Part shown: positions 11,019 through 55,376 of the stretch, in pieces
Numbering within the stretch: the stretch's first letter is position 1
Layout: every line of letters starts with the position of its first letter
Position numbers and translations under genes: made by a program
The notes under the pieces: model-generated
What the model was told of the DNA's origin: nothing
What the model saw: the letters and a program-made list of their open reading frames with translations, nothing else
The model's database searches: none
Source of the DNA: Candidatus Iainarchaeum sp.
GTDB lineage: Archaea; Iainarchaeota; Iainarchaeia; JAGGVJ01
DNA length: 55,376 nt
Reading direction: 5' to 3'
NCBI GenBank assembly: GCA_021158055.1
Contig: JAGGVJ010000045.1
Location: 1 to 55,376 of the forward strand

Positions 11019-11083
11019 ACATTAAAAACTACATACTTATGAATAACAATGATACATAAACTTGAAATCCAAGGGGAACACCA

Positions 11084-12208: not shown

Positions 12209-12231
12209 TAAAATAAGGTACAGGTGCAAAA

Positions 12232-15984: not shown

Positions 15985-16427
15985 CAAAAACTCTTTGCGG
16001 GACAAAAAGAGGACAAATTGCAGTGGAATTCATTTTTTTAATGCTCATAATTTTCACTTTAATTGCAACCATTGTCGCACCCGCATCATCAGTTGCAGTT
16101 GACAGCGTGAAAGAAGTCGGAGGAACCGCGCAATGCAAACTGAACGCCAGGATGCTTGCAAACGCAATTGACTCAGTGAACATCGCGGGAGACGGTGCAA
16201 AACAAACACTTTACCTGCAACTGCCCCCAAACTGCTCGCTTGACACCACAGCGGGTTCAGAAGAAGTGAACTTTGAATTCACCCAGGCAGGCAACACAAA
16301 CCAAGGCACAGTCGGATTAAAAACTTCAACAAATGCAATTACCTGCAACAACCCGGATTCCGCAGCACCTGCAACAATAGAAGCAGAAATCACTGCGACA
16401 TCCGTAACCTGCACAACCACCCCGTAA
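15981..16427 (+). CDS. Minor pilin (class III signal peptide)
   Basis: KRG|QIAVEFIFLMLIIF. ATGA overlap with the peptidase stop supports start 15981. Confidence 0.85.
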   Translation: MTKTLCGTKRGQIAVEFIFLMLIIFTLIATIVAPASSVAVDSVKEVGGTAQCKLNARMLANAIDSVNIAGDGAKQTLYLQLPPNCSLDTTAGSEEVNFEFTQAGNTNQGTVGLKTSTNAITCNNPDSAAPATIEAEITATSVTCTTTP

Positions 16428-16449
16428 ACGCAACCAACAAGACGGTAAC

Positions 16450-16872
16450 ATGAAAAACCATTCCATGAAACGCGGGCAAACAGCAATTGAAGCGCTGCTT
16501 GCATTAAGCATTGTCCTAATACTTGCCACAGCAAGCTTTTCAGGCCTGAACGAAGAAACCCTATTAAACAACTCGGCAATCCTTTCAAGAGAATGCACCC
16601 TCCGCGCAATCAACGACACACACTACAACTCCGGAGCAGTGAACACAAACAACGTCATGAGAATAACCGGAATAACCCCTTCCAGCCCGCCCGGCCCGAC
16701 ATCATTCGACGCCGACAGTGCTGAAATGATTGTCTACAGCGAAGAAAGCGGACAGATAAATGCAGGATCTTCGCTGGAAACCAGCATCAATACTTACTGC
16801 AACGGAAACCCGACTCCGGACGACATCATATCCGGGTTTCTTGAAAACGTAAACGTTTCACTTCCCCCATGA
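16450..16872 (+). CDS. Minor pilin (class III signal peptide)
   Basis: MKRG|QTAIEALLALSIVLIL. Confidence 0.83.
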   Translation: MKNHSMKRGQTAIEALLALSIVLILATASFSGLNEETLLNNSAILSRECTLRAINDTHYNSGAVNTNNVMRITGITPSSPPGPTSFDADSAEMIVYSEESGQINAGSSLETSINTYCNGNPTPDDIISGFLENVNVSLPP

Positions 16873-16895
16873 TAATTTTTTAAAGGCGGGATTGC

Positions 16896-17525
16896 ATGAA
16901 TGAAAACAAACAAGAAAAAAAACATGACAAAACCGCAGGCAACACAAAAAGGAAAAAACACATCCTGCTTGCTCTTCAGATACTCATAATCGCGACAATT
17001 GTTGCAAACACTTTCGCAGTCATATTCCCTGACATTTGCATCACCGCCTTTTTAGTGACCCTGGCGTTTTTTGCAATCATTGCCTACATCATAAGAACAA
17101 AAATTTCGCAGATCTACCCGCAAGACAAACATGCATACTACGTGTTTTTTGCAGGAATAGCTTTTCTTGCAGTCCTGATGCCTCAAATACCAAAACTGCT
17201 TGTCAACGGCACAGTTAACCTGCGCTTTGTTTACTACAACTTTCTCTGGAGCACGTTTCTTTTAATCGGCGCAATTGTCCTGTTTTACATCGGCTTCTTT
17301 GTGTTCTTCGGCAGAAACTACACCTACGCAAAAGTAGTGTTGGCAGACAATGAAAAAGCAGCTGTTGAAACAACTTTCGATCTCCTGGCGCGCTCGCAGG
17401 AAGGAAGCTTTGTGGTTGAAAACAGCGCAAAAGCAAAAAAAGGCGACAAAGTAAAAGTGCGGGTCCGCGGAAGCCTGTTCGGCACAAGGAAACCGACAGA
17501 AACAATTGAGGTAACAAGTGAATGA
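16896..17525 (+). CDS. Membrane protein, DUF2101-like, pilus-operon associated
   Basis: Four TM helices then a beta-rich tail YTYAKVV..KKGDKVKVRV..P. Family assigned from memory. Confidence 0.6.
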   Translation: MNENKQEKKHDKTAGNTKRKKHILLALQILIIATIVANTFAVIFPDICITAFLVTLAFFAIIAYIIRTKISQIYPQDKHAYYVFFAGIAFLAVLMPQIPKLLVNGTVNLRFVYYNFLWSTFLLIGAIVLFYIGFFVFFGRNYTYAKVVLADNEKAAVETTFDLLARSQEGSFVVENSAKAKKGDKVKVRVRGSLFGTRKPTETIEVTSE

Positions 17526-26933: not shown

Positions 26934-28178
26934 CTACCCCGCCCTTATGGATGGGGCTTCCTGATTCATAGAAAAAACTTGCTGTTTGCTTGTACAACAA
27001 ACAGTAGAGGTGTTGTCTCCAACAGGCTTGGATTCGGACAGTTCCTGCCCTAGTTTCAATATGTTTAGCGAAGCGTTAGTATCCCTGTCAAGCACTAACC
27101 CACAATTGCATTTGTGAGTTCGCACTGCTAATGATTTCTTGACTATTTCTCCGCAATTGCTGCATCGTTGTGATGTGTTTCTTGGATTGACTGATTCAGA
27201 AACCAAAGATTTCTGAATATTACAGAATCCCGCGGGATTCTGTAATTTTACAACCCTGCCACCGGCACTTTCAGCCACGTAACCAAGTTTTTCTAAAAAG
27301 TTTCCCCAGGACACATCGTTTATTGACTTTGCCAAGCAATGGTTTTTAACCATGTTTTTTATGTTCAAATCCTCAACACAGATAAAACCGTATCTTTTGA
27401 CTAAATCATTGCTTAGTTTCCACGCAAAGTCATCTCTGATATTTATTATTCTTTCATCAACCACAGCAATCTTGACTCTTTTTTTGTTCCGGTTTTTGCT
27501 TTGCTTCATTGTCTTGCTGAAGTTTCTGTTTAATCGTTTTCTTTTCTTTGCAAAGTATTTCAACGGTTTAGGGTGTTCAACAAACTCATTATCACTTGTT
27601 GCAATGAAATAATTCAACCCCAAATCCAAACCCACTTCTTTATCTGTAGTTGTCTTTTTGTTATCAGTTGGGTTTGCACAAACCACTGTTGCAAAATATT
27701 TTCCCGTCTTTGCTTTTTTTATTGTAAGTGTTTTAGCATTACCTGTTATTTCCCTGTGGTATTTAGTGTTTAGCCAGCCAACTTTAGGAAAAAATGTTTT
27801 CTTGCCTATATTTTCAGGGTTATTGACTTGAGGCATTGTAATGCTTCTGTTTGCCCCGAACTTTTTATATCTCGGAAAACCTTTCTTCCTTGCGTTTTCC
27901 TTTACTCTCCTGAAAAAGTTTCTGAAACCCTTGTCCACCCTGTCCGCAACGTTTTGCACTACCTGAGAATGGGTTTCTTTAGTGCCTTTCACTTCTGAAT
28001 ACAAGTGTTTTCTCCCTAAATTTGCATTGTATTGATTATGAGCAAGTTTTTTCAGGGCAAGCAGTTCATTGAATGTTTTTCTGCAAAACTCTATTTGTTT
28101 GTCTATTTCTGTGGCTTGTGCCTTTGAAGGATAAACCCTGTACCTGTACGCTTTCATTACACCCATAACAATACCCAT
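26934..28178 (-). CDS. tnpB: RNA-guided endonuclease TnpB
   Basis: KAYRYRVYP HTH start. RuvC residues GLDLG, VEDL and DRDTNA intact. Zn finger CSNCG..CNCG. Start may be 28157. Confidence 0.93.
   Translation of the reverse strand: MGIVMGVMKAYRYRVYPSKAQATEIDKQIEFCRKTFNELLALKKLAHNQYNANLGRKHLYSEVKGTKETHSQVVQNVADRVDKGFRNFFRRVKENARKKGFPRYKKFGANRSITMPQVNNPENIGKKTFFPKVGWLNTKYHREITGNAKTLTIKKAKTGKYFATVVCANPTDNKKTTTDKEVGLDLGLNYFIATSDNEFVEHPKPLKYFAKKRKRLNRNFSKTMKQSKNRNKKRVKIAVVDERIINIRDDFAWKLSNDLVKRYGFICVEDLNIKNMVKNHCLAKSINDVSWGNFLEKLGYVAESAGGRVVKLQNPAGFCNIQKSLVSESVNPRNTSQRCSNCGEIVKKSLAVRTHKCNCGLVLDRDTNASLNILKLGQELSESKPVGDNTSTVCCTSKQQVFSMNQEAPSIRAG
27192..27246. repeat. Two adjacent inverted repeats forming an in-frame insertion in tnpB
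   Basis: ATTCAGAAA-ccaaaga-TTTCTGAAT (27194-27218) and perfect 28-bp palindrome ATTACAGAATCCCGCGGGATTCTGTAAT (27219-27246). Confidence 0.9.
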
Positions 28179-41731: not shown

Positions 41732-41896
41732 TTGGACCAAAAAGGACAGATCTCAGTGGAACTAATTATAGTGATGGCTGCAATTATAGCCATAGCGCTT
41801 GTCTTGATTACCCAGTTCCAGGCAACAGTCAAGGAAGGATCAAGCGCAATCGAAACAAAACGAAGCGAAATTTTCTCAAAAATAGGTGATATCTGA
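41732..41896 (+). CDS. 54-aa mini-pilin, TTG start (not in ORF track)
   Basis: MDQKG|QISVELIIVMAAIIAIALVLITQFQATVKEGSSAIETKRSEIFSKIGDI*. SD GGGGTGG. TGATG overlap with the next gene. Confidence 0.85.
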   Translation: MDQKGQISVELIIVMAAIIAIALVLITQFQATVKEGSSAIETKRSEIFSKIGDI

Positions 41897-42078
41897 TGAC
41901 TACACTGTCAGAAGACAAAAAAGCACAGATATCACTTGAAACAATGCTTGTAGCCTCGGCGCTTGTTGCCTGCGCGGTTGCAATAGTCGTCCTGATGAAA
42001 ACAAGCATGGGAAAAGGAGAAAATGAATTTTCAAAAGGAGTTTCAAGCGCTCTCAAAGAATCAAAAAAAATCAGGTGA
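41896..42078 (+). CDS. 60-aa mini-pilin
   Basis: EDKKA|QISLETMLVASALVACAVAIVVLM. Confidence 0.83.
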   Translation: MTTLSEDKKAQISLETMLVASALVACAVAIVVLMKTSMGKGENEFSKGVSSALKESKKIR

Positions 42079-42532
42079 GCTTTTCAGGCGAAACCCACAG
42101 TTGTTTTTCGGTCAGGCGTCGCTTGAATTCATAATCCTTTTAGCTGCAGGGCTAGCCGCGCTTGGAGTAATCATTGTTGAGATAAACACGGTTGTTGAAA
42201 CAAGCGACTTTGCCCTCGGGACAATCCAGTCGCGTCAGGCAGTGCAGCAAATAACCTCGGCAATAAACACGGTTTCTCTTCTTGGAAACGGGAACACCGT
42301 AAGAGCAGAAACACAGCTTTCAAAAGGAAAACTTACTCTTGAAATACAAAACCAATCAACCGAAGCCAAAAGAAAAGAGCTTTGCGCCACGTTTGACCTG
42401 CTTGGCCAAAAAAAGAAAACGTGTTCAAAAATAGTTGCCGAAATCGAATCAATCCCGAAAAAAGTTGAATCCGGCAGGACAAGCTTTACCGCTGAAAACA
42501 AAAACGGGAAAATAACAGTAAAAATTATATAA
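42023..42532 (+). CDS. Minor pilin (class III signal peptide), start uncertain
   Basis: G|QASLEFIILLAAGLAALGVII. AINTVSLLGNG resembles AIDSVNIAGDG in the 15981 pilin. Confidence 0.78.
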   Translation: MNFQKEFQALSKNQKKSGELFRRNPQLFFGQASLEFIILLAAGLAALGVIIVEINTVVETSDFALGTIQSRQAVQQITSAINTVSLLGNGNTVRAETQLSKGKLTLEIQNQSTEAKRKELCATFDLLGQKKKTCSKIVAEIESIPKKVESGRTSFTAENKNGKITVKII

Positions 42533-42615
42533 TCAATCGCAAATTATACAATTAATCGCACAACCACCCACCCAACCGCACAACCACCCAATCACCCGTA
42601 ACTTATCCGACCCAC

Positions 42616-42996
42616 TTACCTAAACCCGGCTTCCAAAACCACCTCCTTGAGCACCCCAGAAGAATCAGCAAGCAACCTTGATTCCACTGCACAAAATCCA
42701 CACGAACCATTTGAAACAACAACGCCGTCAAACTCAAAACAGTATACAAGTTCTGGATTAACCAAAAAGAAAACCTTGTCAAGATTTTCTTTTATCCTTT
42801 CCCTTCTTGAAAAAGCCAAATCCTCAAAAAGACCGTTTTCCTCAAGAGCAGTCAAAGCATCAGAAACCATAATCTGAAGGATCTCTTTATCATGCAGCAC
42901 ATTCTCCTGAAACGAAAAAGTTGACGCAACAACCAAAAAAGAAACCAATGCCAAAAGCAACAGCGATGATTCAATTGAATAAATTACACCTTTCAT
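42616..42996 (-). CDS. Pilin-like protein
   Basis: MKG|VIYSIESSLLLLALVSFLVV. Overlaps the upstream stop. Confidence 0.72.
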   Translation of the reverse strand: MKGVIYSIESSLLLLALVSFLVVASTFSFQENVLHDKEILQIMVSDALTALEENGLFEDLAFSRRERIKENLDKVFFLVNPELVYCFEFDGVVVSNGSCGFCAVESRLLADSSGVLKEVVLEAGFR

Positions 42997-43730
42997 TCAC
43001 ACACCCCCACCCTCAAAACCCCGACACCCACATCGCTTTCGGTTTTAACAGAAACAATCCTTGAAACAACCACACAATCACCACTCCAACCGGCTTCTTT
43101 TTCAGCAAATCCCTTGTTTTCAGCGCAGTACTCACGCGGAAAACACACCGAAACCAAATCAGACTCCACACTCACCGCAAGCTCTTTTCCAGTATCCAAC
43201 ACATCATTTAACATTGCTGAATCAAGCGACTCAAGAAAAACAACCCTTTTTTCAGGAAGAAAAACAACCGACTCTTTCACCTGACGCTTCAACGAATCAT
43301 AAAAAGCAAGACCAAACCTGTCAGGAAACCCAGTCCAGTCAACAGGGTGGCCAGGATCATTCAAAAACAGCTCGGAAACAGAAAACGCCACACGCTGCCT
43401 TTCAACTGTCTTTTGCCAAACCAAAGCCCACCCTTCAAAACCCGAAACAAACGCAACCGTGTAAAAAAGCATAAGCATCACCAACATCGAAAAAACAAGA
43501 GAATCCAAAAGCATTGCCTGGCCCCTTTTGAAACCTGCTTTGCTTCCGGTTCCGATCTTGATTTTGGGGTTTCGTTTGGTTCCAGCCATGGTTTTATAAT
43601 CAAAAAGCGTGAGAGCAAAAGGCGTGAAAATAAAAGTTAACAAAAACTGTAAGGGAAATAAAGTTTTTCCCTTTCTGAAAACTGAAGCAAACCCAGCAAC
43701 CAGCATCAAAAACGCCGAAATCTTTTGCAT
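42993..43730 (-). CDS. Pilin-like protein with long leader
   Basis: FKRG|QAMLLDSLVFSMLVMLMLF and PG.P.DW...GLA motif. Start 43730 is supported by a TGATG overlap and GAGGTG. Alternative ATG at 43589. Confidence 0.72.
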   Translation of the reverse strand: MQKISAFLMLVAGFASVFRKGKTLFPLQFLLTFIFTPFALTLFDYKTMAGTKRNPKIKIGTGSKAGFKRGQAMLLDSLVFSMLVMLMLFYTVAFVSGFEGWALVWQKTVERQRVAFSVSELFLNDPGHPVDWTGFPDRFGLAFYDSLKRQVKESVVFLPEKRVVFLESLDSAMLNDVLDTGKELAVSVESDLVSVCFPREYCAENKGFAEKEAGWSGDCVVVSRIVSVKTESDVGVGVLRVGVCE

Positions 43731-44107
43731 CAGCAAAACACCTCTGCTTCGTACGGGCAATACGTTTCTATGTTTTTTTGGTCAGAAGCAGCTAACGCCA
43801 CAGTAAACTTCACCGGTTTTCCTGTCTCGTCGCAAACCCTGTTTTTTTCACACACGCTCCAATCCAGGCTGATTTTCTGTGCATTGCTTTCATTGCCGTG
43901 CAGCTCAAGAAAACAACCCTTGCCGCACACCGCAATCGCATCCAGCCTGACTGCGGTTTCTTCAAATGCCAGGTAAAGTTCTTTTTCGCTTGCGTGTTGT
44001 TTTGCGTGGCTGAAGAACTGATTTTGGGACTCAAGCGCAAACCCTGTTGCAAGCAATACAATGACAATTGAAAAAAGGGCTTCAATTGTTATCTGGCCCT
44101 GCTTCAA
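43730..44107 (-). CDS. Pilin-like protein
   Basis: MKQG|QITIEALFSIVIVLL. Confidence 0.78.
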   Translation of the reverse strand: MKQGQITIEALFSIVIVLLATGFALESQNQFFSHAKQHASEKELYLAFEETAVRLDAIAVCGKGCFLELHGNESNAQKISLDWSVCEKNRVCDETGKPVKFTVALAASDQKNIETYCPYEAEVFC

Positions 44108-44811
44108 AGAACCAACTCCTCAATCAACTGCAGCGCGGTTTTTTTCACAACCAGGGTGTAGCCTGTTGGAAAAATCACGGTTTTTGTGAGAGTTGAATTG
44201 CCTGACTTTGCAGTGATTGTCGCTCCAAGAACAAGCCCCTTGTGCTCTGCCAAAACGAACTCTTGCGCAACAGGGTTTGAAATCTTTTTTTCTTCACCCA
44301 ATTCAAGGATTTTTAAAGCAAGCTCTTTGTTATCTACAAAAGCCAAAAGATAACTTTTCAGGGAATGGTTTCTTACAGCAATTATTTTCTCAATGTCACT
44401 TTTTTTAATCGGCTGTTTTTGAAGCGCAGTTGTGTTTTCGTAACTTTCAGGGTTTAATCCAGATGAAAAATAACCGGCACCCGTTTGTTTTTTCACCCAC
44501 AAATCGACTTCAACTGCCCCAGAATACTTTTTTTCAAGTTCTTGTTCCAGGCAAAGTATTTTTTCAGCCAGAGCAATTCGTTCCAAACCAGGCTCTGTTA
44601 AAAGCTGGTGTGAAAGAACGGAATAAACAAGAGATTCAAAGGAATGCAAGATGTCTTTTTTTACCTGTTTTGCTTTCATTTCCAAAAAAATAGCCTGATC
44701 TGCCTCAACAAGCCTTGAGTGCATGACTGCGTTTGACGCGATTAAAACAAGCAACCCTGCAACGATTACAGTCACTACAATAAAAGAAGTTATCCCTTTT
44801 CTCAAATCCAT
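44104..44811 (-). CDS. Pilin-like protein
   Basis: MDLRKG|ITSFIVVTVIVAGLLVLI. Start moved to ATG 44811. Confidence 0.68.
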   Translation of the reverse strand: MDLRKGITSFIVVTVIVAGLLVLIASNAVMHSRLVEADQAIFLEMKAKQVKKDILHSFESLVYSVLSHQLLTEPGLERIALAEKILCLEQELEKKYSGAVEVDLWVKKQTGAGYFSSGLNPESYENTTALQKQPIKKSDIEKIIAVRNHSLKSYLLAFVDNKELALKILELGEEKKISNPVAQEFVLAEHKGLVLGATITAKSGNSTLTKTVIFPTGYTLVVKKTALQLIEELVL

Positions 44812-45220
44812 CCCCGCAAATAACTCACGGTTAAAACAAGTAATATATTTTTCGATTGCGGCTGCAAAAAGCAAAGTGATTATTGGCGTGATTAGCGATT
44901 ATGGGTAGTGCTTAGTGTTTTTTGATGGTGCTTAACAGCAGGGAGTGCCTTTTCAATCGCTGTCAAAACATACAATCATAGAATATATCCTGTTTTGAAG
45001 CTGTTTTGCTGAATTTCAAAGGTTTTAACAAAAAATACTTTTATTTTCAGATAACTTTAATAAAGCCCTTTTTCATAAATTATAATTACTAAGATGCAAT
45101 CCAATCAAACCAATCAATTTGGTCAAACCTGAGTATCTTACATTTTTTTTAATTAACACACATCTTTTATGATTTTTTATTAATACTCTTATTTTTTAAT
45201 CCGCAGATTAACTGGTAGAT

Positions 45221-46235: not shown

Positions 46236-47138
46236 ATGAAACGAATTGACGTAAAAACAGGTTACACCTGCAACAACAATTGCCTTTTCTGTGCTGTTGC
46301 CGGTCACAAGCATGTAGAAGATCTTTCAACCCTCAAAATAAAAGAAAAGATAACGCATGCAAAAAACAGCAAAGCTGACATACTGCTACTGACCGGGGGA
46401 GAGCCGACCATCCGGCACGATATCTTTGAATTGATAGAATTTGCTTCGCTGGCGAAATTCAATGATATAGCCATAGAATCAAACGGCAGAATGTTCAGTT
46501 ACGACTGGTTTGCAGACAAAGCAATGTCCTGTGGAGCCTACACCTTTTTAATATCTTTTCATGCACCAAACCCCCTGTTAGGCGATTATCTTGCAAACGC
46601 AAAGGGGAGCTACAATCAAACACTTAACGGTCTGAAAAACCTGACTGACCTCGGAGTAAAAATATGCGTAAACTCCGTCATCGTAAAACCGAACTACAAA
46701 CTACTTGAGCAAACCGCTGAAATATTAATCAATTTAAACATAAGCAAAATTCATTTCCCTTTCGTCGACCCCACAGGAAATGCTTTTAAATACCGTGAAG
46801 AAATCGTCCCGCGGCTCTCGGAAATTGCCCCGTACCTGCACAAGGCGTTTGACTTATGCAAAGAACGCGGGGTAAAGGCAACCACTGAAAAAATTCCTTT
46901 TTGTTATCTTGCAGGTTATGAGGAATCTATTGGGGAACAAAACATGCCTGAAACTGAAATATGGGCTCCTGATTATACCACGCCTGATTTTAACCGGTCC
47001 AGAACCACAGAAGGAAAATCAAAGGGCCCGCAATGCACATCATGCGCCTTTTTTCATAAGTGCGAGGGAGTCATGAATAATTATTCAAACCTTGTCGGTT
47101 ACGGCGAACTAAAACCAGTCAATAAAAACAATCAATAA
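46236..47138 (+). CDS. Radical SAM protein, HxsC-like #1
   Basis: CNNNCLFC, TGGEPTI, SNGRMF, IPFC, and C-terminal CxxC-x5-CEG..Y...G..EL.P. Confidence 0.88.
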   Translation: MKRIDVKTGYTCNNNCLFCAVAGHKHVEDLSTLKIKEKITHAKNSKADILLLTGGEPTIRHDIFELIEFASLAKFNDIAIESNGRMFSYDWFADKAMSCGAYTFLISFHAPNPLLGDYLANAKGSYNQTLNGLKNLTDLGVKICVNSVIVKPNYKLLEQTAEILINLNISKIHFPFVDPTGNAFKYREEIVPRLSEIAPYLHKAFDLCKERGVKATTEKIPFCYLAGYEESIGEQNMPETEIWAPDYTTPDFNRSRTTEGKSKGPQCTSCAFFHKCEGVMNNYSNLVGYGELKPVNKNNQ

Positions 47139-47194: not shown

Positions 47195-48052
47195 CTACAA
47201 AGGGTTCAACTCTTCTGCCCCGACAAATTTTTTATAGCTTCTCCAGATTCCCGAGCAATCAGAAAAATATTTGCATTGATTGCATTCCTCTTTGAAAAAC
47301 AACCTTTTCCTTTCTGTAGTGACTCCTTCTGCGTATCCCCTGAACTTCTCTGAAAGCACGCATTTTGGAAAATGATACAAGATAAAATCCAGCTCATTTT
47401 CCTTTAATACCGAACACGCTTTCTCTAAAAAGGGAACAACTTCTGAATATCTTACAATCAACTGTTTTTTGTTCAATGCAGCCGATCCCACGATATTAAA
47501 ATAAAGAAAAACAACATTGGACACACTCGGCATGTTCAAGGAAATAAATTTCGCTATTCTGGGCAACGCCTCATAATTAAGATTATGCACAACTACCCTG
47601 ATCTCAACTTCCACCCCCAACCTTAACAGGTTTTGAATCCCTTCAATGGTCTGGATAAAACTCCCTTTCGCTTGAGTGATCTTTTCAAAAAGTTCCTCTT
47701 CCCCGGCATGTAAGGGCACTGCCACACTCTTTAAACCCAAATCTGTCATTTTTTTTGAAAAATCAGCGTAACAGAACATTCTTGCATTGGTGAGCAGTCT
47801 CTTCTTGGCTTTCGGAAACCTTTTTTCAAGGCAGCTCATTATATCAAATATGTCAGATCTTATTGTCGGTTCACCTCCCCCTGTGACGCTGATCTCTGAC
47901 ACGTTTTCATCAAGCGAGTTTATCATTTGTTTAATGTCCTCTGTTGAAGGCCCTTCTTTAATTTCACACTGCGTCTTTGAATAACCCAACCTCACAATCG
48001 GACACATGACACAATTATTATTACATGAAAAACAAATATTAAGATCAATCAT
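47195..48052 (-). CDS. hxsC: His-Xaa-Ser system radical SAM maturase HxsC-like (closest to canonical HxsC)
   Basis: CNNNCVMC, GGEPTI, LLTNARMF, VPLHA, GSF.QT..GI.NL...VEIRVVVH..NY..L, YHFPKC, CxxC-x5-CSG. Confidence 0.75.
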   Translation of the reverse strand: MIDLNICFSCNNNCVMCPIVRLGYSKTQCEIKEGPSTEDIKQMINSLDENVSEISVTGGGEPTIRSDIFDIMSCLEKRFPKAKKRLLTNARMFCYADFSKKMTDLGLKSVAVPLHAGEEELFEKITQAKGSFIQTIEGIQNLLRLGVEVEIRVVVHNLNYEALPRIAKFISLNMPSVSNVVFLYFNIVGSAALNKKQLIVRYSEVVPFLEKACSVLKENELDFILYHFPKCVLSEKFRGYAEGVTTERKRLFFKEECNQCKYFSDCSGIWRSYKKFVGAEELNPL

Positions 48053-48166: not shown

Positions 48167-49306
48167 TCAAGCAAAAAAATTAACAAGCAAATACGTCAAA
48201 AAATTTCCTTTGAAAAAATAAGTCAAAAGAACCCCCACAAAAAGCACCGGTGCAAAAGATATCGTTTCCTGAACTTTTATCCTGTCTGAATCAAGCAAAC
48301 CATTCTCCAGCCTGTAAAGCATCTCGCGAATATCCCATTCAGCTAAACCACCTGCTCTTCGCAAAAAAAGCACATTGTGATACCTTCGGAAGTCATCTGG
48401 AGATGAATCAAAAAGTATTTCCTTACCTTTTCCAGACATTGATTTTTCAAGAATCACTTTTTTGTAATGGTGGCGGCCTTTTTTGTTATCAATATCTTTT
48501 ATTCTCTCAAATGTTTCAACAGGCATCATTCCCGGCGCAAGATCAATTATTCTTTTTTCAATAGTAAAATTCCTTTTTGTAAGAGAAATAAGAATTAAAT
48601 AACCAAAAACGAACAATACAAATTTTTCAAAAAAACCTATCCAAAAAGAATAAGAAAGCATAACAGAACCTGCAAAAACAATTCTGATAATCACAAAAAT
48701 TGCCATCACAACATCTGTTTTCGAAGCAAACAATTTCTTTATTTTCGGAAAGATAATTATCATGACCGCCAGATTCAAAAAAGGATCAGATGGCATCCCA
48801 ATAAACAAAATAAACTGATTAAATACCCAGTAAAACCCCAGTAAATAAAGAACTTTTGAAACTATCCTTTCAAACGAAAAAATGTTTTTTACCTCCTGAG
48901 CCAATGTTTCCATCCTGAAAGAACGCACATTAAAAATTGTCAACGCGAAAAAAGCCAGCAAAAAACTGTTTATGAATATGGCAAACGAAGGAAAAAAAGA
49001 TATTAATTTGAAGTCATAAATACTGGTCGGAATAAGCAACGCATATGCTGTCATCAACTTGGCATCACCGGCAGGCCAAAAACCAACATACCACAATCCA
49101 AAGCCAAGAATAAACATGATCATTACATTTAGCAGGATATCAAATAAAAGCACGGGTTTTTGAAAAACCAAAAAAGAAGTAATAATTACGCCCGCTAAAA
49201 GAGCAATCATTATACATTTGTTGCTTACTTTTTTGTATTTTATATCATAAAAAGAAGTTACTAACCCAAAAATAAACACAAAGAAAAAATCAATCATAAC
49301 CAACAA
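48167..49306 (-). CDS. A24 family prepilin-type peptidase inside the radical SAM cluster
   Basis: SFYDIK and WPAGDAKL catalytic Asp pair. Many TM helices. C-terminal DLAPGM..GL..FAPVLFVG, similar to the 14887 paralog. Confidence 0.85.
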   Translation of the reverse strand: MLVMIDFFFVFIFGLVTSFYDIKYKKVSNKCIMIALLAGVIITSFLVFQKPVLLFDILLNVMIMFILGFGLWYVGFWPAGDAKLMTAYALLIPTSIYDFKLISFFPSFAIFINSFLLAFFALTIFNVRSFRMETLAQEVKNIFSFERIVSKVLYLLGFYWVFNQFILFIGMPSDPFLNLAVMIIIFPKIKKLFASKTDVVMAIFVIIRIVFAGSVMLSYSFWIGFFEKFVLFVFGYLILISLTKRNFTIEKRIIDLAPGMMPVETFERIKDIDNKKGRHHYKKVILEKSMSGKGKEILFDSSPDDFRRYHNVLFLRRAGGLAEWDIREMLYRLENGLLDSDRIKVQETISFAPVLFVGVLLTYFFKGNFLTYLLVNFFA

Positions 49307-49408: not shown

Positions 49409-49675
49409 CTACTCGCTTTCAGAATAAAGCCCTTCACACAACCTATTAATCTCCCTTACCTCTTCTTTAACTTCTTTTATATCCCTCTTCAATGAAGATA
49501 TGCCATCGTCCTGATTTTGATCAAGAACCAATACGCGAACAGCAGTCCTTTCTGAAATCTCAAGAGCCATTGAAGATTTATCCATAATTGAAGTCAGATA
49601 ATATATTGTCACAGCCTGTGCCAAAATAATTAAAACAAGAAGCACTGGGACCAATTTATTAGTATTACTGCTCAT
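49409..49675 (-). CDS. Small membrane-anchored coiled-coil protein
   Basis: One TM helix then a coiled coil. SD GGAGGGAGG before ATG 49675. Confidence 0.65.
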   Translation of the reverse strand: MSSNTNKLVPVLLVLIILAQAVTIYYLTSIMDKSSMALEISERTAVRVLVLDQNQDDGISSLKRDIKEVKEEVREINRLCEGLYSESE

Positions 49676-49851
49676 ATACCTCCCTCCCGAATACAATCAA
49701 AAATTATACTTGAATCTATTATTTACTAAAAATCTTTTATAAGTATATTAATATTACTTTATATTAATAGGTATGCTGTCAAAAAACATATCGTCAGCGG
49801 GTCGAAGTATCTCTGCACCTGCAATTGATAAAAAACAAAAGTGAATCCAGG

Positions 49852-50697
49852 ATGATAAAACGTTTCAACATCAATACCGGCACAATGTGCAACAATAACT
49901 GTCGTTTTTGTGTGATTGATCACAACGAAAAACCACGGAACACTTGTTTTGAAGATATAGAAAAAGAACTTGAAGTATTCAGAGAAAAAGGCATAAGAGA
50001 AATAGCCTTCGTTGGCGGCGAGGTTACAATTCGCAGAGATATCATTGAAATGATTTCGCTTGCGAAAAAACTTGGTTACGCTAAAATCCGGATTGTGAGC
50101 AATGGGAGGATGTATTGCTATCCTGATTTTTTGGAAAAAATCATCAAAGCAGGAGTGAACGGATTTACTGTCTCAATACACGCTCACAATGCGTCACTTG
50201 GGGATTACCTGTCAAGATCCAAAGGCAGTTTCACGCAGACAACAACAGGAATAAAAAACCTACGCAAAATGGGTTTCATTCCAAACATAAATATTGTGAT
50301 AAACAAATTAAACTATAAGCACCTTCCGGAAATCATCTCACTTTTAAATAGCTTTGACATAAACAACATACGCATGTCAATCATAAACCCTGAAGGGAAT
50401 GCAATGACTAATTTCAATGAAGTAGTGCCTACGCTGACTGAAATTACACCATATATAAAAAAATCAGCAAAAATCTGTGACAAAAACAACATCAGCCTAA
50501 CCATAAACTCCCTTCCTTTTTGCATACTGCCGGAGTGCAACAGATACAAAGACGAACCTTACAATATCTTAAACAAAATAAACATAAAACCCGAAAAATG
50601 CAATTCATGCATATATTTTGAGGTTTGTGACGGACTTCGGAAGGAATACGCTAAAAAATTCGGGTTTAAAGAAATAATGCCAATAAAAAATAACTAG
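49852..50697 (+). CDS. Radical SAM protein, HxsC-like #3
   Basis: CNNNCRFC, VGGEVTI, SNGRMY, LPFC, CNSCIYFEVCDG..Y...G. Alternative TTG start at 49825. Confidence 0.88.
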   Translation: MIKRFNINTGTMCNNNCRFCVIDHNEKPRNTCFEDIEKELEVFREKGIREIAFVGGEVTIRRDIIEMISLAKKLGYAKIRIVSNGRMYCYPDFLEKIIKAGVNGFTVSIHAHNASLGDYLSRSKGSFTQTTTGIKNLRKMGFIPNINIVINKLNYKHLPEIISLLNSFDINNIRMSIINPEGNAMTNFNEVVPTLTEITPYIKKSAKICDKNNISLTINSLPFCILPECNRYKDEPYNILNKINIKPEKCNSCIYFEVCDGLRKEYAKKFGFKEIMPIKNN

Positions 50698-50786: not shown

Positions 50787-51731
50787 TTATTGAATCGGCC
50801 TCAGTTCATCAGTGCCATATATATCCGCATAACTTTTCCAAACCCCCAGACAATGAGCATCCTCCACGCACAACTTACACGAAGGAGATTTTACTTTATT
50901 CCTCATCACACTAACAACAGAAGAATGAAGCGGACTTTTTGGATCAGAAGAAAGTATCTTATATTCATCACAATTTTTCAAATATTTATAAAAATAACAC
51001 AATGGCACACCGCAAAAAGGATTGGAAAAACCAATGCCTTTCTTTTCACATTTTTCTGCGGCTTGATCCAGATAACGTTCAACTTCTGATATCTTCGGGA
51101 CAATCCACTTGTTTTTTTGAGGACTGCCGTAAGGTTGTACAAAAGAAAATACAATCCTGCCAATTGAACCTGAAAATTCTTTGTCGATAAATTCCACAAA
51201 CTCGGGAAGAATCCTGTAATTAACAGAGTTTACAACAATATTCAAATCAACCGGAACACCCTCATGAATAAGGTTGTGAATTCCCGCAATAGTTTTTTTG
51301 AATGTGCCGGGGCTTCTTGTCAAAAAATCAGACATCTCCTCCAAATGCGAATGCAATGATATAAACGCACTTGCCAAGCCAGCTGAGACAAGGGCTTTCG
51401 TATAACTTTTATATGCAAATCTTATCGCGTTTGATTGAACGACAATCTTAACACCTTTTGAGTGGGCAAAAGAAATCAAATCAAATAAATCATCCCTTAT
51501 TGTCGGTTCGCCTCCTGTAAAGGTTATTTGGGTGCAACCTGTGCTAAGAAAACTTTTCAGCTCATTTAAAAGAAACTGCGGTTTCGGATTCTCAAATTGA
51601 GAATTACAAAATTCAACTGTTTTTTCTTGGCTAATCTGCATAATCTCTGATGTCTTATTTCCACCTTTGACATTGCAAAAAAAACAATTCTGGTTACAAG
51701 CCAACCCCGTCCTGAAAATATTATCCACCAT
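50787..51731 (-). CDS. Radical SAM protein, HxsC-like #4
   Basis: CNQNCFFC, TGGEPTI, QSNA, GVPLC, CKLCVEDAHCLGVW..Y...GTDELRP. Confidence 0.88.
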   Translation of the reverse strand: MVDNIFRTGLACNQNCFFCNVKGGNKTSEIMQISQEKTVEFCNSQFENPKPQFLLNELKSFLSTGCTQITFTGGEPTIRDDLFDLISFAHSKGVKIVVQSNAIRFAYKSYTKALVSAGLASAFISLHSHLEEMSDFLTRSPGTFKKTIAGIHNLIHEGVPVDLNIVVNSVNYRILPEFVEFIDKEFSGSIGRIVFSFVQPYGSPQKNKWIVPKISEVERYLDQAAEKCEKKGIGFSNPFCGVPLCYFYKYLKNCDEYKILSSDPKSPLHSSVVSVMRNKVKSPSCKLCVEDAHCLGVWKSYADIYGTDELRPIQ

Positions 51732-51732
51732 A

Positions 51733-52641
51733 TTACCCTATTGGCTGAAACTCTTCCCACCCTCTCTTTTGAGGATACTCACACCAAGGACCCTCACACT
51801 GACTGTCATAAATGCATTTGCTGCACAACGGTCCCTTTGATTTTCCCATATTTCTTCGCACTTCCGTAAAATTTCTGATATTGGAACTTACACTGCGTAT
51901 CTCTGTTTCAGGTATGAATCTCTCTGAGCAAAAAGATTCATAACCTTTCATAAAACAAAACGGGTATGCTTCAGCCATCACAGAAACACCCGCGTTTATA
52001 CCAATATCAAGAGCACGGTGAACAAACGGTTCTACTTTGCTTTTTAGCGGAACAATGCTATCAAAATATTTGAATGCATTTCCCTGAGGATGCACAAAAG
52101 CAAACTGAAACTGATCAACCCCAAGATTAACAAGCAACTTGGCTATATCAGGCAAAAATTCATAGTTTGGTTTTGTGATTACAGTATTTGAAGCGACATA
52201 CAACCCCAAAGATTTTGCGTTCACAATCCCTTGAGAGGTCTGCTTAAAGCTGCCTGGTGAACGGGTCAGGTAATCATGAAGTTGGGAATTGTGCCCATGA
52301 AGAGCAGGGGATATTTCGGTTGCCCCGCAATCCACAAGTTTCCTTACAAATGATTTATAATAAAGCATTCTTCCGTTTGTCTGAATCTGAATTATTTCAT
52401 AATCAAGAGCCCTTGCAAAAGAGACTATTTCAAATACATCAGGGCGAATAGTGACCTCGCCCCCTGTAAAAACCACTTCTCCAGCACCGTTTTCTTTTCC
52501 TACTGCAAGGTCTTTTTTTATCTCTTCAGTTGTTTTATCAAGGCTTTTTCCCGAATTTCGGTTTTCTGCGATAACGCAAAAACGACAGTTATTGTTACAT
52601 TTAAATCCAACTTTTAAGTCAAGCCGGTCCTTTTTTTTCAT
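51733..52641 (-). CDS. Radical SAM protein, HxsC-like #5
   Basis: RLDLKVGFKCNNNCRFC, TGGEVTI, QTNGRM, YPFC, CSKCIYDSQCEG. Start moved to ATG 52641. Confidence 0.88.
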   Translation of the reverse strand: MKKKDRLDLKVGFKCNNNCRFCVIAENRNSGKSLDKTTEEIKKDLAVGKENGAGEVVFTGGEVTIRPDVFEIVSFARALDYEIIQIQTNGRMLYYKSFVRKLVDCGATEISPALHGHNSQLHDYLTRSPGSFKQTSQGIVNAKSLGLYVASNTVITKPNYEFLPDIAKLLVNLGVDQFQFAFVHPQGNAFKYFDSIVPLKSKVEPFVHRALDIGINAGVSVMAEAYPFCFMKGYESFCSERFIPETEIRSVSSNIRNFTEVRRNMGKSKGPLCSKCIYDSQCEGPWCEYPQKRGWEEFQPIG

Positions 52642-52771
52642 AAAGTTATTTAAACATTCAAAACATATTAACTTTGTGTAAAATAACGATGTCAAGTTGT
52701 TATTTTTAAATTTTGAGATTGCCGCCGTCATTATATATTTAAAAATAAGAACCTTAAAAACAGATGATCTT

Positions 52772-53113
52772 ATGCCTGAAGAAAGTACTTTTCAAATGCT
52801 TGATAATGTAAAGATTGACAGCAAAAAAATGAACGCACACATAACTGTAAATCCGAAAATACACCCACCATCAACAATATACTCTTCATGTTACACCCTC
52901 TTTGATAAAAATTATGTTTTCATAACTGAATCTGACGATAAATTCAAAATAGAAATAACCCCAAAAAAAGATACTTCAATAAAAGATTTCGGACTCACCT
53001 GCGGCAATTTCAACAACCTGCTCATTACACAAACAAGCAACCTGTTTTTCATATCCAAAAACAAGAAACTAAATAACATCATCCTAAAAGGGGTTGAAAA
53101 AGCACATATTTAA
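52772..53113 (+). CDS. hxsD: HxsD-like protein
   Basis: ITVNPKIH...IYSSCY.L.D..YV......I.I.PK......GNFNNLL resembles the HxsD pattern as recalled. Context supports the call. Start at ATG 52772. Confidence 0.65.
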   Translation: MPEESTFQMLDNVKIDSKKMNAHITVNPKIHPPSTIYSSCYTLFDKNYVFITESDDKFKIEITPKKDTSIKDFGLTCGNFNNLLITQTSNLFFISKNKKLNNIILKGVEKAHI

Positions 53114-53181: not shown

Positions 53182-53448
53182 ATGAAAGAAATTGAAATTG
53201 ATGAAAACAATAAAAAAGCAACAATCTCGTTCACAAAAAAAATATATTTCATTGAAGCAGTTATAAAAACAATTAACAATTTTCGAGAATTCTGCGACGT
53301 AACACTTGCAGAAACAGATGATTCAATCCAGATAACAATTGAACCAAAATCCAACACCCTGCCCCTAACTGAAATCGCAAATGAATTTTGCAACCACGTT
53401 TTAAATGAATCAAAGAATACATATGATGACAGTCAAAAGGTGATTTAA
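53182..53448 (+). CDS. Second HxsD-like protein
   Basis: ISFTKKIY..EAV......F......I.I.PK......EFCNHVL, paralogous to the previous ORF. Confidence 0.65.
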   Translation: MKEIEIDENNKKATISFTKKIYFIEAVIKTINNFREFCDVTLAETDDSIQITIEPKSNTLPLTEIANEFCNHVLNESKNTYDDSQKVI

Positions 53449-54894
53449 CTGACTTTTAGTTTTTTTGACACTCCAATCAACCTTAAATATATCATCAACG
53501 ATTACACGGCAAAAAAAATAGGTGACAACCAATATTTCGTGTCAGTAAAACACGGCCCGTGGGCAATACTTGATTCAGAAGATTTTGATCTTTTGAAAAC
53601 CGGCCGGTTAAACGAAAAAAAAGAACTCCTTGATTTTTTACACGAAAAACACATTGTCTTAAGTGAAAACAACATCAATAAAGCAGCACATATCCTGAGT
53701 GAAAGATGCAGTCATATTACTAACGGCGTAACTCTTCACATTGTTGTCCCGACACTGAGATGCACCAACAAATGCGTCTACTGCCATGCCAAATCAAAAG
53801 ACGAGAACGCAAAGGGATATGATATGGATGAGGACACTGCAAAACAAACTGTTGACTTTATATTTGACACTCCTTCAAACAATCTCACTATTGAATTCCA
53901 GGGAGGAGAACCGCTTCTGAACTTTGATATTGTGAGATATATCGTGGACTACGCAAAACTGCTTGGAAAGGAAAAAAACAAAGAAATCCAGTTTGCTCTT
54001 GTCTCAAACTTTGCAAAAATGGACAAAGACATAGCTGACTTTATCATCTCAAACAGAATCGGACTTAACACATCTCTTGACGGCCCGAAAGAAGTCCATG
54101 ACAAAAACAGAAAATATAAGGGCAGGGGCACATATGAAACAGTGGTTTATTGGATTGATTACCTGCTCAAGGAACGAAACTACAAGTCCCTTTCAGCTTT
54201 ACCGACGCCTTCAAGACATTCGCTTGATTATCCAAAAGAAATAGTTGATGAATACATAGAAAGAGGCTTCGACAGGATTTTCATACGCTACCTGAACCGC
54301 GCCGGATTTGCCGAACAGGACTGGGATAAAATTGGATACACTGCCGATGAATTTTTGGATTTTTGGCTAAAGACATTGGATTATATAATTGAATTAAACA
54401 AGCAAAAAGTCGAAATCAGAGAAAGGTGGACTGAAACAATACTTTCAAAACTGATAAATCCAATACACGGCGGATACACCTGCTTGGGATCCCCTTGTGG
54501 AGCGACACTCATCCAGTTAGCTTACGAATCAAACGGAGACATTTACTCTTGCGACGAATCAAGATCTGTTGAATTATTCAAGATAGGGAACGTAAAAGAA
54601 CAAAGATACAGTGATGTAATCACATCAGAACAGGTAAAAACAATCATTTCGCTTTCTTCAGGACTAATGAACAGTTGCGATTCGTGTGTTTGGCATCCTT
54701 ACTGCGGAGCGTGCCTTGTCAGTTTATACAATTCAACCGGAAGCTTCAATTCCAACCCGCGGCAGGACGTGGGGTGCTTAATTAAAAGCGGCTCTATCGA
54801 ACAGATAATAAAAAAACTTGCACAAAAAGATGAAGACACCGACATATTACTTGGGTGGCTGGAAAAGAAAAGATTAATATACAAAATAAAGTAA
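53449..54894 (+). CDS. hxsB: His-Xaa-Ser system radical SAM/SPASM maturase HxsB
   Basis: LHIVVPTLRCTNKCVYC, IEFQGGEPL, TSLDGP..HD.NR, SPCGA...LAY...GDIYSCDE.R, CDSCVWHPYCG. Frame is open back to CTG 53449, preceded by SD AGGTGAT. Track start is GTG 53539. Confidence 0.88.
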   Translation: MTFSFFDTPINLKYIINDYTAKKIGDNQYFVSVKHGPWAILDSEDFDLLKTGRLNEKKELLDFLHEKHIVLSENNINKAAHILSERCSHITNGVTLHIVVPTLRCTNKCVYCHAKSKDENAKGYDMDEDTAKQTVDFIFDTPSNNLTIEFQGGEPLLNFDIVRYIVDYAKLLGKEKNKEIQFALVSNFAKMDKDIADFIISNRIGLNTSLDGPKEVHDKNRKYKGRGTYETVVYWIDYLLKERNYKSLSALPTPSRHSLDYPKEIVDEYIERGFDRIFIRYLNRAGFAEQDWDKIGYTADEFLDFWLKTLDYIIELNKQKVEIRERWTETILSKLINPIHGGYTCLGSPCGATLIQLAYESNGDIYSCDESRSVELFKIGNVKEQRYSDVITSEQVKTIISLSSGLMNSCDSCVWHPYCGACLVSLYNSTGSFNSNPRQDVGCLIKSGSIEQIIKKLAQKDEDTDILLGWLEKKRLIYKIK

Positions 54895-54926
54895 ATGTGT
54901 TTACAACTGATAAAAGATAGATATTC

Positions 54927-55376
54927 ATGAAAAAACTGCAACTCCCAAAAATAAAAAAAACAATTGAATCATTCCTGTGTGAAGAAACTGCAAAACTCTC
55001 AAAAGAACAAGTGGTTACAACAGGACTCAAACTGTCAATAATAGCTGGAGCTGCAACACTTATTACTTCAGACAGCCACGCATGCAACTGTGATTGCGTA
55101 AGTGTATGTCACTGCAAACACGCGAGTCATGACAATTATGACGGCCCGCATGAACCTGACGCAGTAAGTGGTGAAGGCATGGAAATGGATTACAACTCGG
55201 CTTGTGCCTCAAAACTGTCTGCATTCCACACCCATTACGATCCAGAAAATTATAGCTGTTCTTGCAAAAACGATTGCGGTTGCAACTCATATCACAATTC
55301 CCACGGAAGCCACTCAAGCCACGGAAGCCACGGAAGCCACGGAAGCCACGGAAGCCACTCAAGCCACAGCAACAGT
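54927..55376 (+). CDS. hxsA: His-Xaa-Ser repeat precursor peptide (HxsA-like), truncated by window end, not in ORF track
   Basis: 150 open codons: MKKLQLPKIKKTIESFLCEETAKLSKEQVVTTGLKLSIIAGAATLITSDSHACNCDCVSVCHCKHASHDN...SCSCKNDCGCNSYHNSHGSHSSHGSHGSHGSHGSHSSHSNS. Lies directly downstream of hxsB. Confidence 0.88.
   Translation, partial: MKKLQLPKIKKTIESFLCEETAKLSKEQVVTTGLKLSIIAGAATLITSDSHACNCDCVSVCHCKHASHDNYDGPHEPDAVSGEGMEMDYNSACASKLSAFHTHYDPENYSCSCKNDCGCNSYHNSHGSHSSHGSHGSHGSHGSHSSHSNS
55293..55373 (+). repeat. 9-bp coding tandem repeat (CACGGAAGC consensus) encoding His-Xaa-Ser
   Basis: HNS HGS HSS HGS HGS HGS HGS HSS followed by HSN. Confidence 0.95.

Follow-up and report, generated by a model that had tools for sequence, protein, structure and literature searches.

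A probable His-Xaa-Ser precursor peptide with cysteine modules in an archaeal radical S-adenosylmethionine gene cluster

Contig JAGGVJ010000045.1 of a Candidatus Iainarchaeum sp. assembly (GCA_021158055.1) ends in a 150-codon open reading frame (ORF) that is the subject of this report. The contig was analysed at its full length of 55,376 nt, henceforth referred to as the window, and is the entire contig C28 of a 45-contig, 1.15-Mb assembly that is 95% complete. The ORF is a real gene, the last in a co-directional row that reads HxsD-HxsD-HxsB-HxsA. It is probably the sole HxsA-type precursor of an archaeal (Aenigmatarchaeota-like, DPANN) His-Xaa-Ser (HXS, Hxs) radical S-adenosylmethionine (rSAM) maturation system, and the archaeal form of the system, with its Cys modules, many enzymes and own membrane peptidase, appears to be undescribed. 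The ATG-started frame from 54927 is open to the final base of the window, as determined from the ORF listing and from reading positions 54500–55376, and it starts 32 nt past the end of the HxsB gene in an operon-like position. The parts of the precursor are as follows.

54927..55376, + strand: HxsA-like precursor; ATG start, 150 codons; TGA TAA stops probably on contig C5 (L034 positions 12–17)
54927..55025, + strand: leader motif, residues 1–33 (LPKIKKxIxxFLxEExGxISK...G), from the 14-sequence alignment and the leader-profile matches
55026..55082, + strand: hydrophobic stretch with a small-x-small end (SHA), residues 34–52; putative signal or anchor segment
55083..55130, + strand: Cys module 1, residues 53–68 (CxCxCxxxCxC, then HxSH), from the translation
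55257..55304, + strand: Cys module 2, residues 111–126 (CxCxxxCxC, then HxSH), from the translation
55293..55364, + strand: eight consecutive HxS triplets, residues 123–146; copy number uncertain

An initial annotation of this region had described a basic leader, a stretch ending in SDSHA and a Cys-containing core, and all of the strings it quoted are present in the translation: the leader string is MKKLQLPKIKKTIESFLCEETA, and the Cys/HxS strings are CDCVSVCHCKHASH and CSCKNDCGCNSYHNSH. The ten core Cys residues it counted were found at positions 53, 55, 57, 61, 63, 93, 111, 113, 117 and 119, together with one further Cys, at position 18, within the leader. The translation likewise contains the two CxCxxxCxC motifs, each with an HxSH close behind, and the eight HxS triplets, which read HNS, HGS, HSS, HGS, HGS, HGS, HGS and HSS from H123 and are followed by HSNS. 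At the DNA level, the HxS run is a 9-nt unit repeated 7.4 times (55301–55367). Two CxCxxxCxC motifs arose by chance in 2 of 100,000 composition-preserving shuffles of the core, and a six-frame scan of the 1.15-Mb assembly found no second ORF of at least 50 aa with two such motifs or with an HxS run. The 98-residue core contains 15 His, 10 Cys and 11 Asp plus Glu residues (isoelectric point 5.9; net charge −7 at pH 7), and the HxS run is devoid of Lys and Arg. The best 12-mer of the hydrophobic stretch, LSIIAGAATLIT, has a Kyte-Doolittle mean of 1.99 and is followed by SHA, after which a putative cleavage site is placed. A hydrophobic stretch of this kind is present in 176 of the 178 family members that bear the anchor motif.

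The proposal that the two modules had arisen by internal duplication was not supported by comparison of the two halves. Outside the Cys pattern they resembled each other no more than shuffles do: they scored 43 against 35.5 ± 6.9 for shuffled sequences, 301 of 2,000 shuffles scored as high, and DNA similarity between the halves was absent. What is repeated is the motif, and no duplicated segment was detectable.

The statement that the ORF has no stop within the window was correct, but the reason lies in the assembly: the stop is missing because the window is an entire contig, and it is probably located on contig C5 (5,923 nt). This contig opens with the exact last 11 nt of the window, directly followed by in-frame TGA TAA, and the protein therefore probably ends, complete, at residue 150. 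Recovery of the 3′ end, which had been proposed as a check, most probably places the stop right after codon 150. In an edge scan (k = 9–12), the overlap between C28 and C5 was the sole terminus-to-terminus overlap of at least 11 nt among the other contig ends. The gene order on C5, from precursor to large rSAM gene to HxsC-like gene, is the same as in related loci of family f10, and contigs of 1,517 or 5,730 nt derived from the reads of two hydrothermal-vent runs, possibly the runs from which this DNA came, begin at 55329 and extend beyond 55376. The size of the read-derived contigs and the gene order are consistent with the join. Within the assembly, no 15-mer or longer was common to the window tail and other contigs, and no HxS run was found elsewhere. 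Contig C44, which has a His-rich start, was rejected as a continuation, as was C31, whose overlap is internal rather than terminus to terminus and whose following gene has no blastp match to cluster proteins. Positions 1–29 of C31 comprise nine His/Cys/Ser-rich codons and a stop and contain an 11-mer in common with the HGS repeat unit; the C31 start may be where another HxS-type gene ends, or else a repeat fragment that was mis-binned.

Sequencing runs containing the sequence were hydrothermal-vent and cold-seep metagenomes. A relative on a 413-nt contig from a cold-seep run (X3) showed ~91% identity over 54926–55331. It has two 3-nt in-frame insertions and synonymous changes in Cys codons 53 and 57, and among the 12 listed ORF substitutions, 8 fall on the third codon position (28 more differences over a 977-nt stretch are not among these 12). 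The in-frame insertions and third-position changes support coding. One insertion adds a codon between Cys57 and Cys61, so the Cys spacing is not strict. A second cold-seep contig (X4; 2,135 nt) fits only 54919–54959, that is, the ribosome-binding region and first 11 codons, and then diverges; it may derive from a relative in which the ORF continues differently, or it may be chimeric. A scan of metagenome contigs with residues 1–125 returned 140 pattern matches and zero relatives.

The genes next to the precursor were assigned with NCBIfam and Pfam models and, for the HxsC-like genes, by comparison among the paralogs.

53539..54894, + strand: HxsB, rSAM/SPASM maturase; TIGR03978, 426.5 bits (cutoff 370); Pfam Radical_SAM and SPASM
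53182..53448, + strand: HxsD-like small protein (D2); NF038315 (HxsD_rel), 56.4 bits (cutoff 41)
52772..53113, + strand: second HxsD-like protein (D1); TIGR03976, 29.0 bits (cutoff 50); start uncertain, the ORF opens at 52697
51733..52731, − strand: HxsC-like rSAM paralog (HxsC4-like); NF038332, 181.8 bits (cutoff 500)
50787..51731, − strand: HxsC-like rSAM paralog; NCBIfam, paralog comparison
49825..50697, + strand: HxsC-like rSAM paralog; NCBIfam, paralog comparison
48167..49306, − strand: Hxs-linked A24-family (GxGD aspartyl) membrane peptidase; PF01478, 33 bits (cutoff 26.5)
47195..48052, − strand: HxsC-like rSAM paralog, nearest to the HxsC model; TIGR03977, 194.1 bits (cutoff 267.9)
46236..47138, + strand: HxsC-like rSAM paralog; NCBIfam, paralog comparison

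Tandem HxS repeats, an HxsB gene in the locus and an HxsD_rel match above cutoff, all of which characterize Hxs systems, were thus found together. The initial annotation had not recognized the locus as belonging to this named system. The next-best matches of HxsB after its own model were PapB and SCIFF, and its closest relatives (41–51% identity) are encoded in metagenome-assembled genomes (MAGs) titled Candidatus Aenigmatarchaeota or “uncultured archaeon”. The ORF itself matched only two NCBIfam models at E ≤ 0.01: HxsA4 (NF038313; 38.2 bits, E = 1.9e-9, cutoff 55) through residues 106–147, the HxS part, and HxsA3 (NF038309; 31.8 bits, E = 9.1e-8, cutoff 65) through residues 6–70, the leader part. 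No Pfam family matched the 150-aa ORF at E ≤ 0.01. With the HxsD model TIGR03976 (cutoff 50), the two HxsD-like proteins scored 26.8 and 29.0 bits. In D1, an NPK motif and Y41 are invariant across 13 sequences. Its structure model (predicted local distance difference test score 82.5) had no match in the PDB at E ≤ 0.001 by Foldseek, the best being Rpb11-like chains (TM-score ~0.48), with weak matches to type III secretion chaperones. A predicted complex of HxsD1, HxsD2 and the leader scored 0.15 (mark 0.32).

The five HxsC-like paralogs in the window share 28–40% mutual identity, which indicates old copies, and all contain CX3CX2C and a C-terminal CxxCx5C. Contig C5 adds three genes, one for a 667-aa rSAM/SPASM protein and two that are HxsC-like, of 337 aa and, as a double form, 764 aa, so that nine rSAM genes surround the precursor, seven of them HxsC-like (five in the window, two on C5). 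Since only one leader-bearing ORF was found in the 95%-complete genome, all nine enzymes plausibly serve one peptide. Two further observations were made around these genes. A 95-aa ORF at 49409–49696 (− strand), inside the cluster beside the A24-like gene, has one predicted hydrophobic helix and a charged coiled tail, and no family match was obtained for it. At 5483–5923 (+ strand) of C5 (L034), after the cluster, a P-loop ATPase gene begins that is cut by the contig end; its Pfam matches are weak and of STAND/NB-ARC type, and it is possibly a defence-type neighbour.

The leader connects the ORF to a wider family. Weak matches to the first ~45 ORF residues alone were found in 9 of 60 other genomes of the class, and 13 archaeal relatives with the leader were collected, each adjoining an HxsB-like or other rSAM gene. 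A 14-sequence alignment of the window ORF and its relatives, including three from loci with the closest HxsB, gave the consensus LP-x-IKK-x-I-x-x-FL-x-EE-x-G-x-ISK, then Gly and the hydrophobic stretch. E20 and G33 are invariant in 14 of 14 sequences, and P7, G22 and K26 are present in at least 90% (the window ORF has A at position 22). The claimed two-part N-terminus of a ribosomal precursor was therefore supported, a recognition-type motif and a signal-like stretch being common to the 14 archaeal sequences. With a profile built from the leader only, 722 representative clusters were matched (E ≤ 0.001), 81 of them also at E ≤ 1e-10, and the match was nearly always at the N-terminus of small proteins. 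Collecting homologues by the leader alone, as had been suggested, thus yielded a conserved leader in front of very variable cores. Among the 150 leader clusters listed, at least three consecutive HxS triplets were present in 32, at least four Cys in 55, both in 6 and a CxC-x(2-4)-CxC motif in 4. Cores of family f10 have long HxS runs and short Cys-containing tails, those of family f18 have very short HxS stretches and 0–1 Cys, and two further loci encode a Cys-rich core with a single HxS (L017) and a core of H/S/C repeats (L018).

When the whole ORF was used as query in a word-based search, 46 matches were returned, the best at 54 bits, and two CxCxxxCxC motifs occurred in 0 of these 46. One match, from an Omnitrophota MAG, is named HxsA4 by NCBI; two others are hypothetical proteins from an Omnitrophica MAG and a Patescibacteria MAG. 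Twelve of the 13 archaeal precursors matched HxsA3 or HxsA4 at E ≤ 0.01, and two Omnitrophota proteins, P0007 (95.5 bits) and P0026 (74.2 bits), pass the HxsA4 cutoff. By these scores, the window ORF belongs to a sister group of the curated HxsA3 and HxsA4 families, set apart by a segment of ~70 residues that lies between leader and HxS run and contains two Cys modules. Some leader-bearing proteins have unusual architectures. The gene directly after HxsB in an Aenigmatarchaeota MAG (L014:4104–5738, + strand) encodes 545 aa, in which the leader is followed by an (STT)n run and by a large C-terminal domain without an NCBIfam match. In P0109 (2,131 aa), the 53-position leader profile matched in 11 separate stretches, whereas elsewhere it is single and N-terminal. 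P0072, P0079 and P0132 (258–367 aa) contain, as judged by eye, an apparent Hint/intein-type domain behind an HxS/His-rich stretch, with a Cys near the start and a His-Asn pair near the end of the putative Hint region.

The A24-family peptidase of the cluster is a second, divergent copy in the genome. A canonical A24 gene with an Arc_PepC domain lies at 14887–15984, beside pilus genes. In the Hxs-linked type, D21, N29, D81 and K83 are invariant in 13 of 13 sequences, and both catalytic Asp residues are kept. Across 18 related loci that were mapped, the recurring set comprises the A24-like gene, two HxsD-like genes, HxsB, the precursor and several HxsC-like genes, in the order A24-D-D-B-A-C-C-C-C in L025. 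HxsB (E ≤ 1e-60) was detected in 29 of 215 genomes of the class (11/13 in f10, 15/23 in f18) and the Hxs-linked peptidase type (E ≤ 1e-12) in 28 of 215. The latter occurred in 26 of the 29 HxsB-positive genomes versus 2 of the 186 others, counts that come from about four related families and are not independent. The three HxsB-positive genomes without it involve a split gene (L033), a 72%-complete genome and a weak HxsB. In 24 genomes, HxsB and the A24-like gene are no more than ~2 kb apart on one contig. The linkage between HxsB and the peptidase is clear; we know of no previous link of the GxGD protease class to peptide natural products or HXS.

A type IV pilus-like locus occupies 14887–17525 and 9117–13143 of the window, with a T2SSE ATPase and two T2SSF genes upstream, and a class III signal-peptide protein (pilin) at 15966–16427 adjoins the canonical A24 gene. 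The region 41732–44874, between an M50-type peptidase gene and a DUF7121 gene, contains a row of small and mid-sized ORFs without a Pfam match, several of them pilin-like by eye in that a short charged N-terminus precedes a hydrophobic helix. The window is otherwise archaeal in content (Nre, RFC, GatD/E, eRF1, CDC48, class III signal-peptide pilins) and includes an IS605 OrfB/TnpB-type gene at 26934–28178 (− strand) with OrfB_IS605, Cas12f1-like TNB and HTH domains.

The 667-aa enzyme encoded on C5 directly downstream of the precursor is an rSAM/SPASM peptide maturase. It scored 109.6 bits with PapB (cutoff 340), 87 with SCIFF (cutoff 425) and 58 with CcpM (cutoff 500), and a nif11-type maturase model was also matched. 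In f10, where the precursors have 2–4 Cys, full-length orthologs (27–29% identity, E from 1e-43 to 1e-84) adjoin the precursor at all 6 loci, and in f18, with 0–1 Cys per precursor, at none of the 4; including the window, the counts are 7/7 versus 0/4, from three lineages only. The suggestion that the Cys motifs are targets of the extra rSAM enzymes gained support from this pattern and from the presence of the downstream SPASM maturase.

A maturation pathway can be proposed in which the N-terminal motif (residues 1–33) would serve as a handle for HxsB and/or the HxsD-like proteins on the unmodified cytoplasmic peptide. HxsB and the HxsC-like enzymes would then modify the HxS run, by analogy with E. 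coli, and the 667-aa PapB/SCIFF-like SPASM enzyme would cross-link the two Cys modules, most likely via thioether bonds. The hydrophobic stretch would bring the product to the membrane or through it. The leader might be removed either by the GxGD peptidase, at the boundary between the invariant Gly33 and the hydrophobic stretch, or by signal peptidase after SHA. The mature product would be a cross-linked, acidic, His/Cys-rich envelope or extracellular peptide.

Several observations weigh against the assignment to HXS or against parts of this pathway. The ORF is below all of the curated HxsA cutoffs: it misses those of HxsA3 and HxsA4, it has no match at E ≤ 0.01 to the HxsA equivalog model TIGR03979 (cutoff 121.65), and 0 of its 13 archaeal relatives reach the HxsA3 or HxsA4 cutoff. 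None of the HxsC-like paralogs passes its model either, the best scores being 194.1 versus 267.9 for HxsC and 181.8 versus 500 for HxsC4. A Pfam scan found no peptidoglycan-binding domain in the ORF, a domain expected of E. coli-type HxsA. The core is acidic and the HxS run lacks Lys and Arg, so the DNA-binding model based on the basic repeats of E. coli HxsA is not directly transferable. The C28–C5 join, though probable, rests on 11 nt and gene order, with no bridging read or contig, and branching of the assembly graph, seen as unitigs of 34–35 nt within the repeat, makes the HxS copy number uncertain. No RNA run was among the listed runs containing the sequence. The relatedness of the families behind the peptidase counts also belongs here. 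Cleavage by the A24 peptidase at Gly33 is speculative; Lys or Arg typically precedes the Gly in class III signal peptides, and the residue preceding Gly33 is neither. Thioether chemistry is likewise a family-level guess, the scores of the 667-aa enzyme being far under the PapB, SCIFF and CcpM cutoffs.

As to function, a conflict or defence effector, acting in virus exclusion or in antagonism of other cells, is our tentative preference, held with somewhat less than even confidence and favoured by the patchy distribution and hypervariable cores, with metal binding and yet other roles sharing the remaining probability. It is possible, if somewhat unlikely, that the mature product is instead a secreted or envelope metal-binding peptide (metallophore, metallochaperone or metal buffer) that the rSAM enzymes only rigidify. 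His imidazoles, Cys thiolates and Asp/Glu side chains would coordinate metals in the metal-rich vent setting, and the His/Cys/Asp/Glu composition of the core, with its low isoelectric point and net negative charge, favours such binding. CxCxxxCxC occurs in metallothioneins, yet no Pfam family, metallothionein or other, matched the ORF, and the Cys residues would be lost as thiolate ligands if the adjacent SPASM enzyme forms thioethers. Two f10 relatives weakly match ZrgA, a zinc uptake family (E = 3.4e-4 and 0.0099), below cutoff and probably through composition. The vent and cold-seep origin of the metagenomes is in keeping with metal binding, whereas the patchiness (29/215 class genomes) and hypervariable cores are more typical of conflict systems, and the sole experimentally studied Hxs system in the literature searched is antiviral (PMC13128918).

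A direct archaeal counterpart of this E. coli HXS antiphage effector (Li et al., Nat Commun 2026, PMC13128918), in which a matured envelope HxS-repeat protein would block viral DNA entry, is doubtful. The core machinery is homologous (HxsB above cutoff, HxsD-like and HxsC-like proteins), the distribution is patchy and lineage-specific, and a STAND-like ATPase fragment adjoins the cluster on C5. In E. coli, each of the five HxS repeats of HxsA is needed to block phage DNA entry, and defence also requires the rSAM clusters and N-terminal processing (PMC13128918). The archaeal protein differs from that effector in ending at residue 150 without a recognizable peptidoglycan-binding domain, in its acidic core and HxS run free of basic residues, and in missing the HxsA cutoffs. 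PADLOC (2023) returned solely generic viperin-type rSAM matches, and 99.7% of the HXS system is placed in Pseudomonadota in the E. coli study, in which archaea are mentioned 0 times (PMC13128918).

It is very unlikely that the ORF encodes a type IV pilin-like protein, that is, a class III substrate of the neighbouring A24 peptidase that forms a surface fibre, with the rSAM genes as unrelated neighbours. The A24-family gene within the cluster, the invariant Gly directly before the hydrophobic stretch and the pilus genes elsewhere in the window would fit such a protein. The ORF, however, has no Class_IIIsignal (PF04021) match while the true pilin at 15966–16427 does, and its leader matches HxsA3. 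Class III signal peptides are also far shorter than the ~33 conserved residues that precede the Gly here, and the Hxs-linked peptidase tracks HxsB and not the pilus genes, with which the canonical A24 sits. Finally, the reading that there is no gene, only a frame kept open by chance across a 9-nt tandem repeat where the contig stops, would account for a frame that is cut at the contig edge and partly simple repeat but is refuted by the conservation of the leader in 9/60 class genomes and 722 clusters, and it is made next to impossible by the in-frame insertions and mostly third-position changes of the X3 relative, the motif shuffle statistics and the operon-like position after HxsB.

The conflict-effector reading can be extended to a broader scheme that we regard as decidedly unlikely when taken as a whole. 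DPANN archaea, and probably also Omnitrophota and Patescibacteria through the common leader, would have an expanded HXS branch in which up to nine rSAM enzymes act on one His/Cys precursor that is released by a GxGD peptidase, the resulting thioether-stapled, HxS-modified envelope peptide being the first archaeal barrier to viral genome entry. If this were true, the 722-cluster leader family would represent a large unexplored class of envelope effectors. More generally, an antiviral product would extend entry-blocking defence to archaea, and a metal-binding product would mean that the same machinery serves a different purpose. Whichever applies, the locus is a recognizable relative of Hxs in genome-reduced archaea and in a much larger form, one 150-residue precursor being plausibly served by a cluster that takes more than 1% of a 1.15-Mb genome. 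It offers handles on questions left open by E. coli, namely the rSAM chemistry, the removal of the N-terminus and the role of HxsD. The leader-defined family, with at least 722 clusters and hypervariable cores, is a pool for new peptide chemistry.

In the literature searched, the 2026 E. coli work is the only functional Hxs study (PMC13128918). A paper that preceded it dates the prediction of the Hxs system to 2011 and names HxsB and HxsC only as predicted enzymes (PMC9062424). HxsA3, HxsA4 and HxsC4 were not mentioned in the literature searched, and the archaeal and DPANN literature on rSAM enzymes of ribosomally made, post-translationally modified peptides that was searched contained, by title or abstract, nothing on such a system.

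Metallothioneins and His-rich metal-binding proteins resemble the precursor in their clustered CxC motifs and His-rich run. To our knowledge, metallothioneins have no leader, export signal or rSAM context; a leader, a putative export signal and an rSAM context are present here, and no metallothionein family matched the ORF (Pfam, E ≤ 0.01). The SCIFF, ranthipeptide and CcpM peptides are similar in having a Cys-rich core adjoining an rSAM/SPASM maturase with PapB, SCIFF and CcpM as best matches; they differ in Cys pattern, leader and HxS run, and the maturase scores are far under the respective cutoffs. No SCIFF-type or other Cys-rich precursor family matched the ORF in NCBIfam at E ≤ 0.01. In His-containing triceptides, reported as products of the cyclophane synthases HaaB and HtkB (PMC11499958), rSAM/SPASM enzymes likewise act on short His-x-x motifs in ribosomal peptides, and triceptide-like chemistry is one possible kind for the HxS run. 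For the HxsB of the window, however, the HxsB model is best by a wide margin over the cyclophane models GrrM/OscB (70.2 bits, cutoff 310), YhhB (68.3, cutoff 445), XyeB (58.7, cutoff 450) and AmcB (53.6, cutoff 425), and the +8 Da change in E. coli is unlike a simple −2 Da cross-link.

The HxsA3 and HxsA4 variants, which occur with HxsC4 and HxsD_rel, are alike in leader type (HxsA3), HxS tail (HxsA4) and an HxsD_rel match above cutoff. The window ORF differs from both in its sub-cutoff scores and in the ~70 Cys-module residues between leader and HxS run.

The E. coli HXS system resembles the archaeal cluster in its HxS-repeat precursor, whose N-terminal sequence is of export type (putatively so in the archaeal protein), and in its HxsB rSAM/SPASM enzyme, its HxsC-type rSAM enzyme with a C-terminal Cys cluster and its small HxsD-type protein. 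Maturation in E. coli includes processing of the precursor N-terminus, and such processing is proposed for the archaeal precursor too. In E. coli, none of HxsB, HxsC and HxsD is dispensable for a +8 Da change on an SHRSS motif, described as a “+C/-4H-type alteration” of HxsA; HxsC binds HxsD, and mature HxsA is periplasmic (PMC13128918). The archaeal system differs from it in its host and in a 150-aa precursor that has a long conserved leader before the hydrophobic stretch, two Cys modules and an acidic core, in contrast to the E. coli repeats, which are rich in basic residues. Seven HxsC-like and two HxsD-like proteins are encoded here compared to one of each in E. coli, the archaeal set also includes one more SPASM maturase, which is PapB/SCIFF-like, and an A24-family peptidase of its own, and the gene order is D-D-B-A instead of D-B-C-A. 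The precursor is a new member of a leader family that is partly named in databases, and it differs from the E. coli system in host domain, architecture, enzymes and peptidase.

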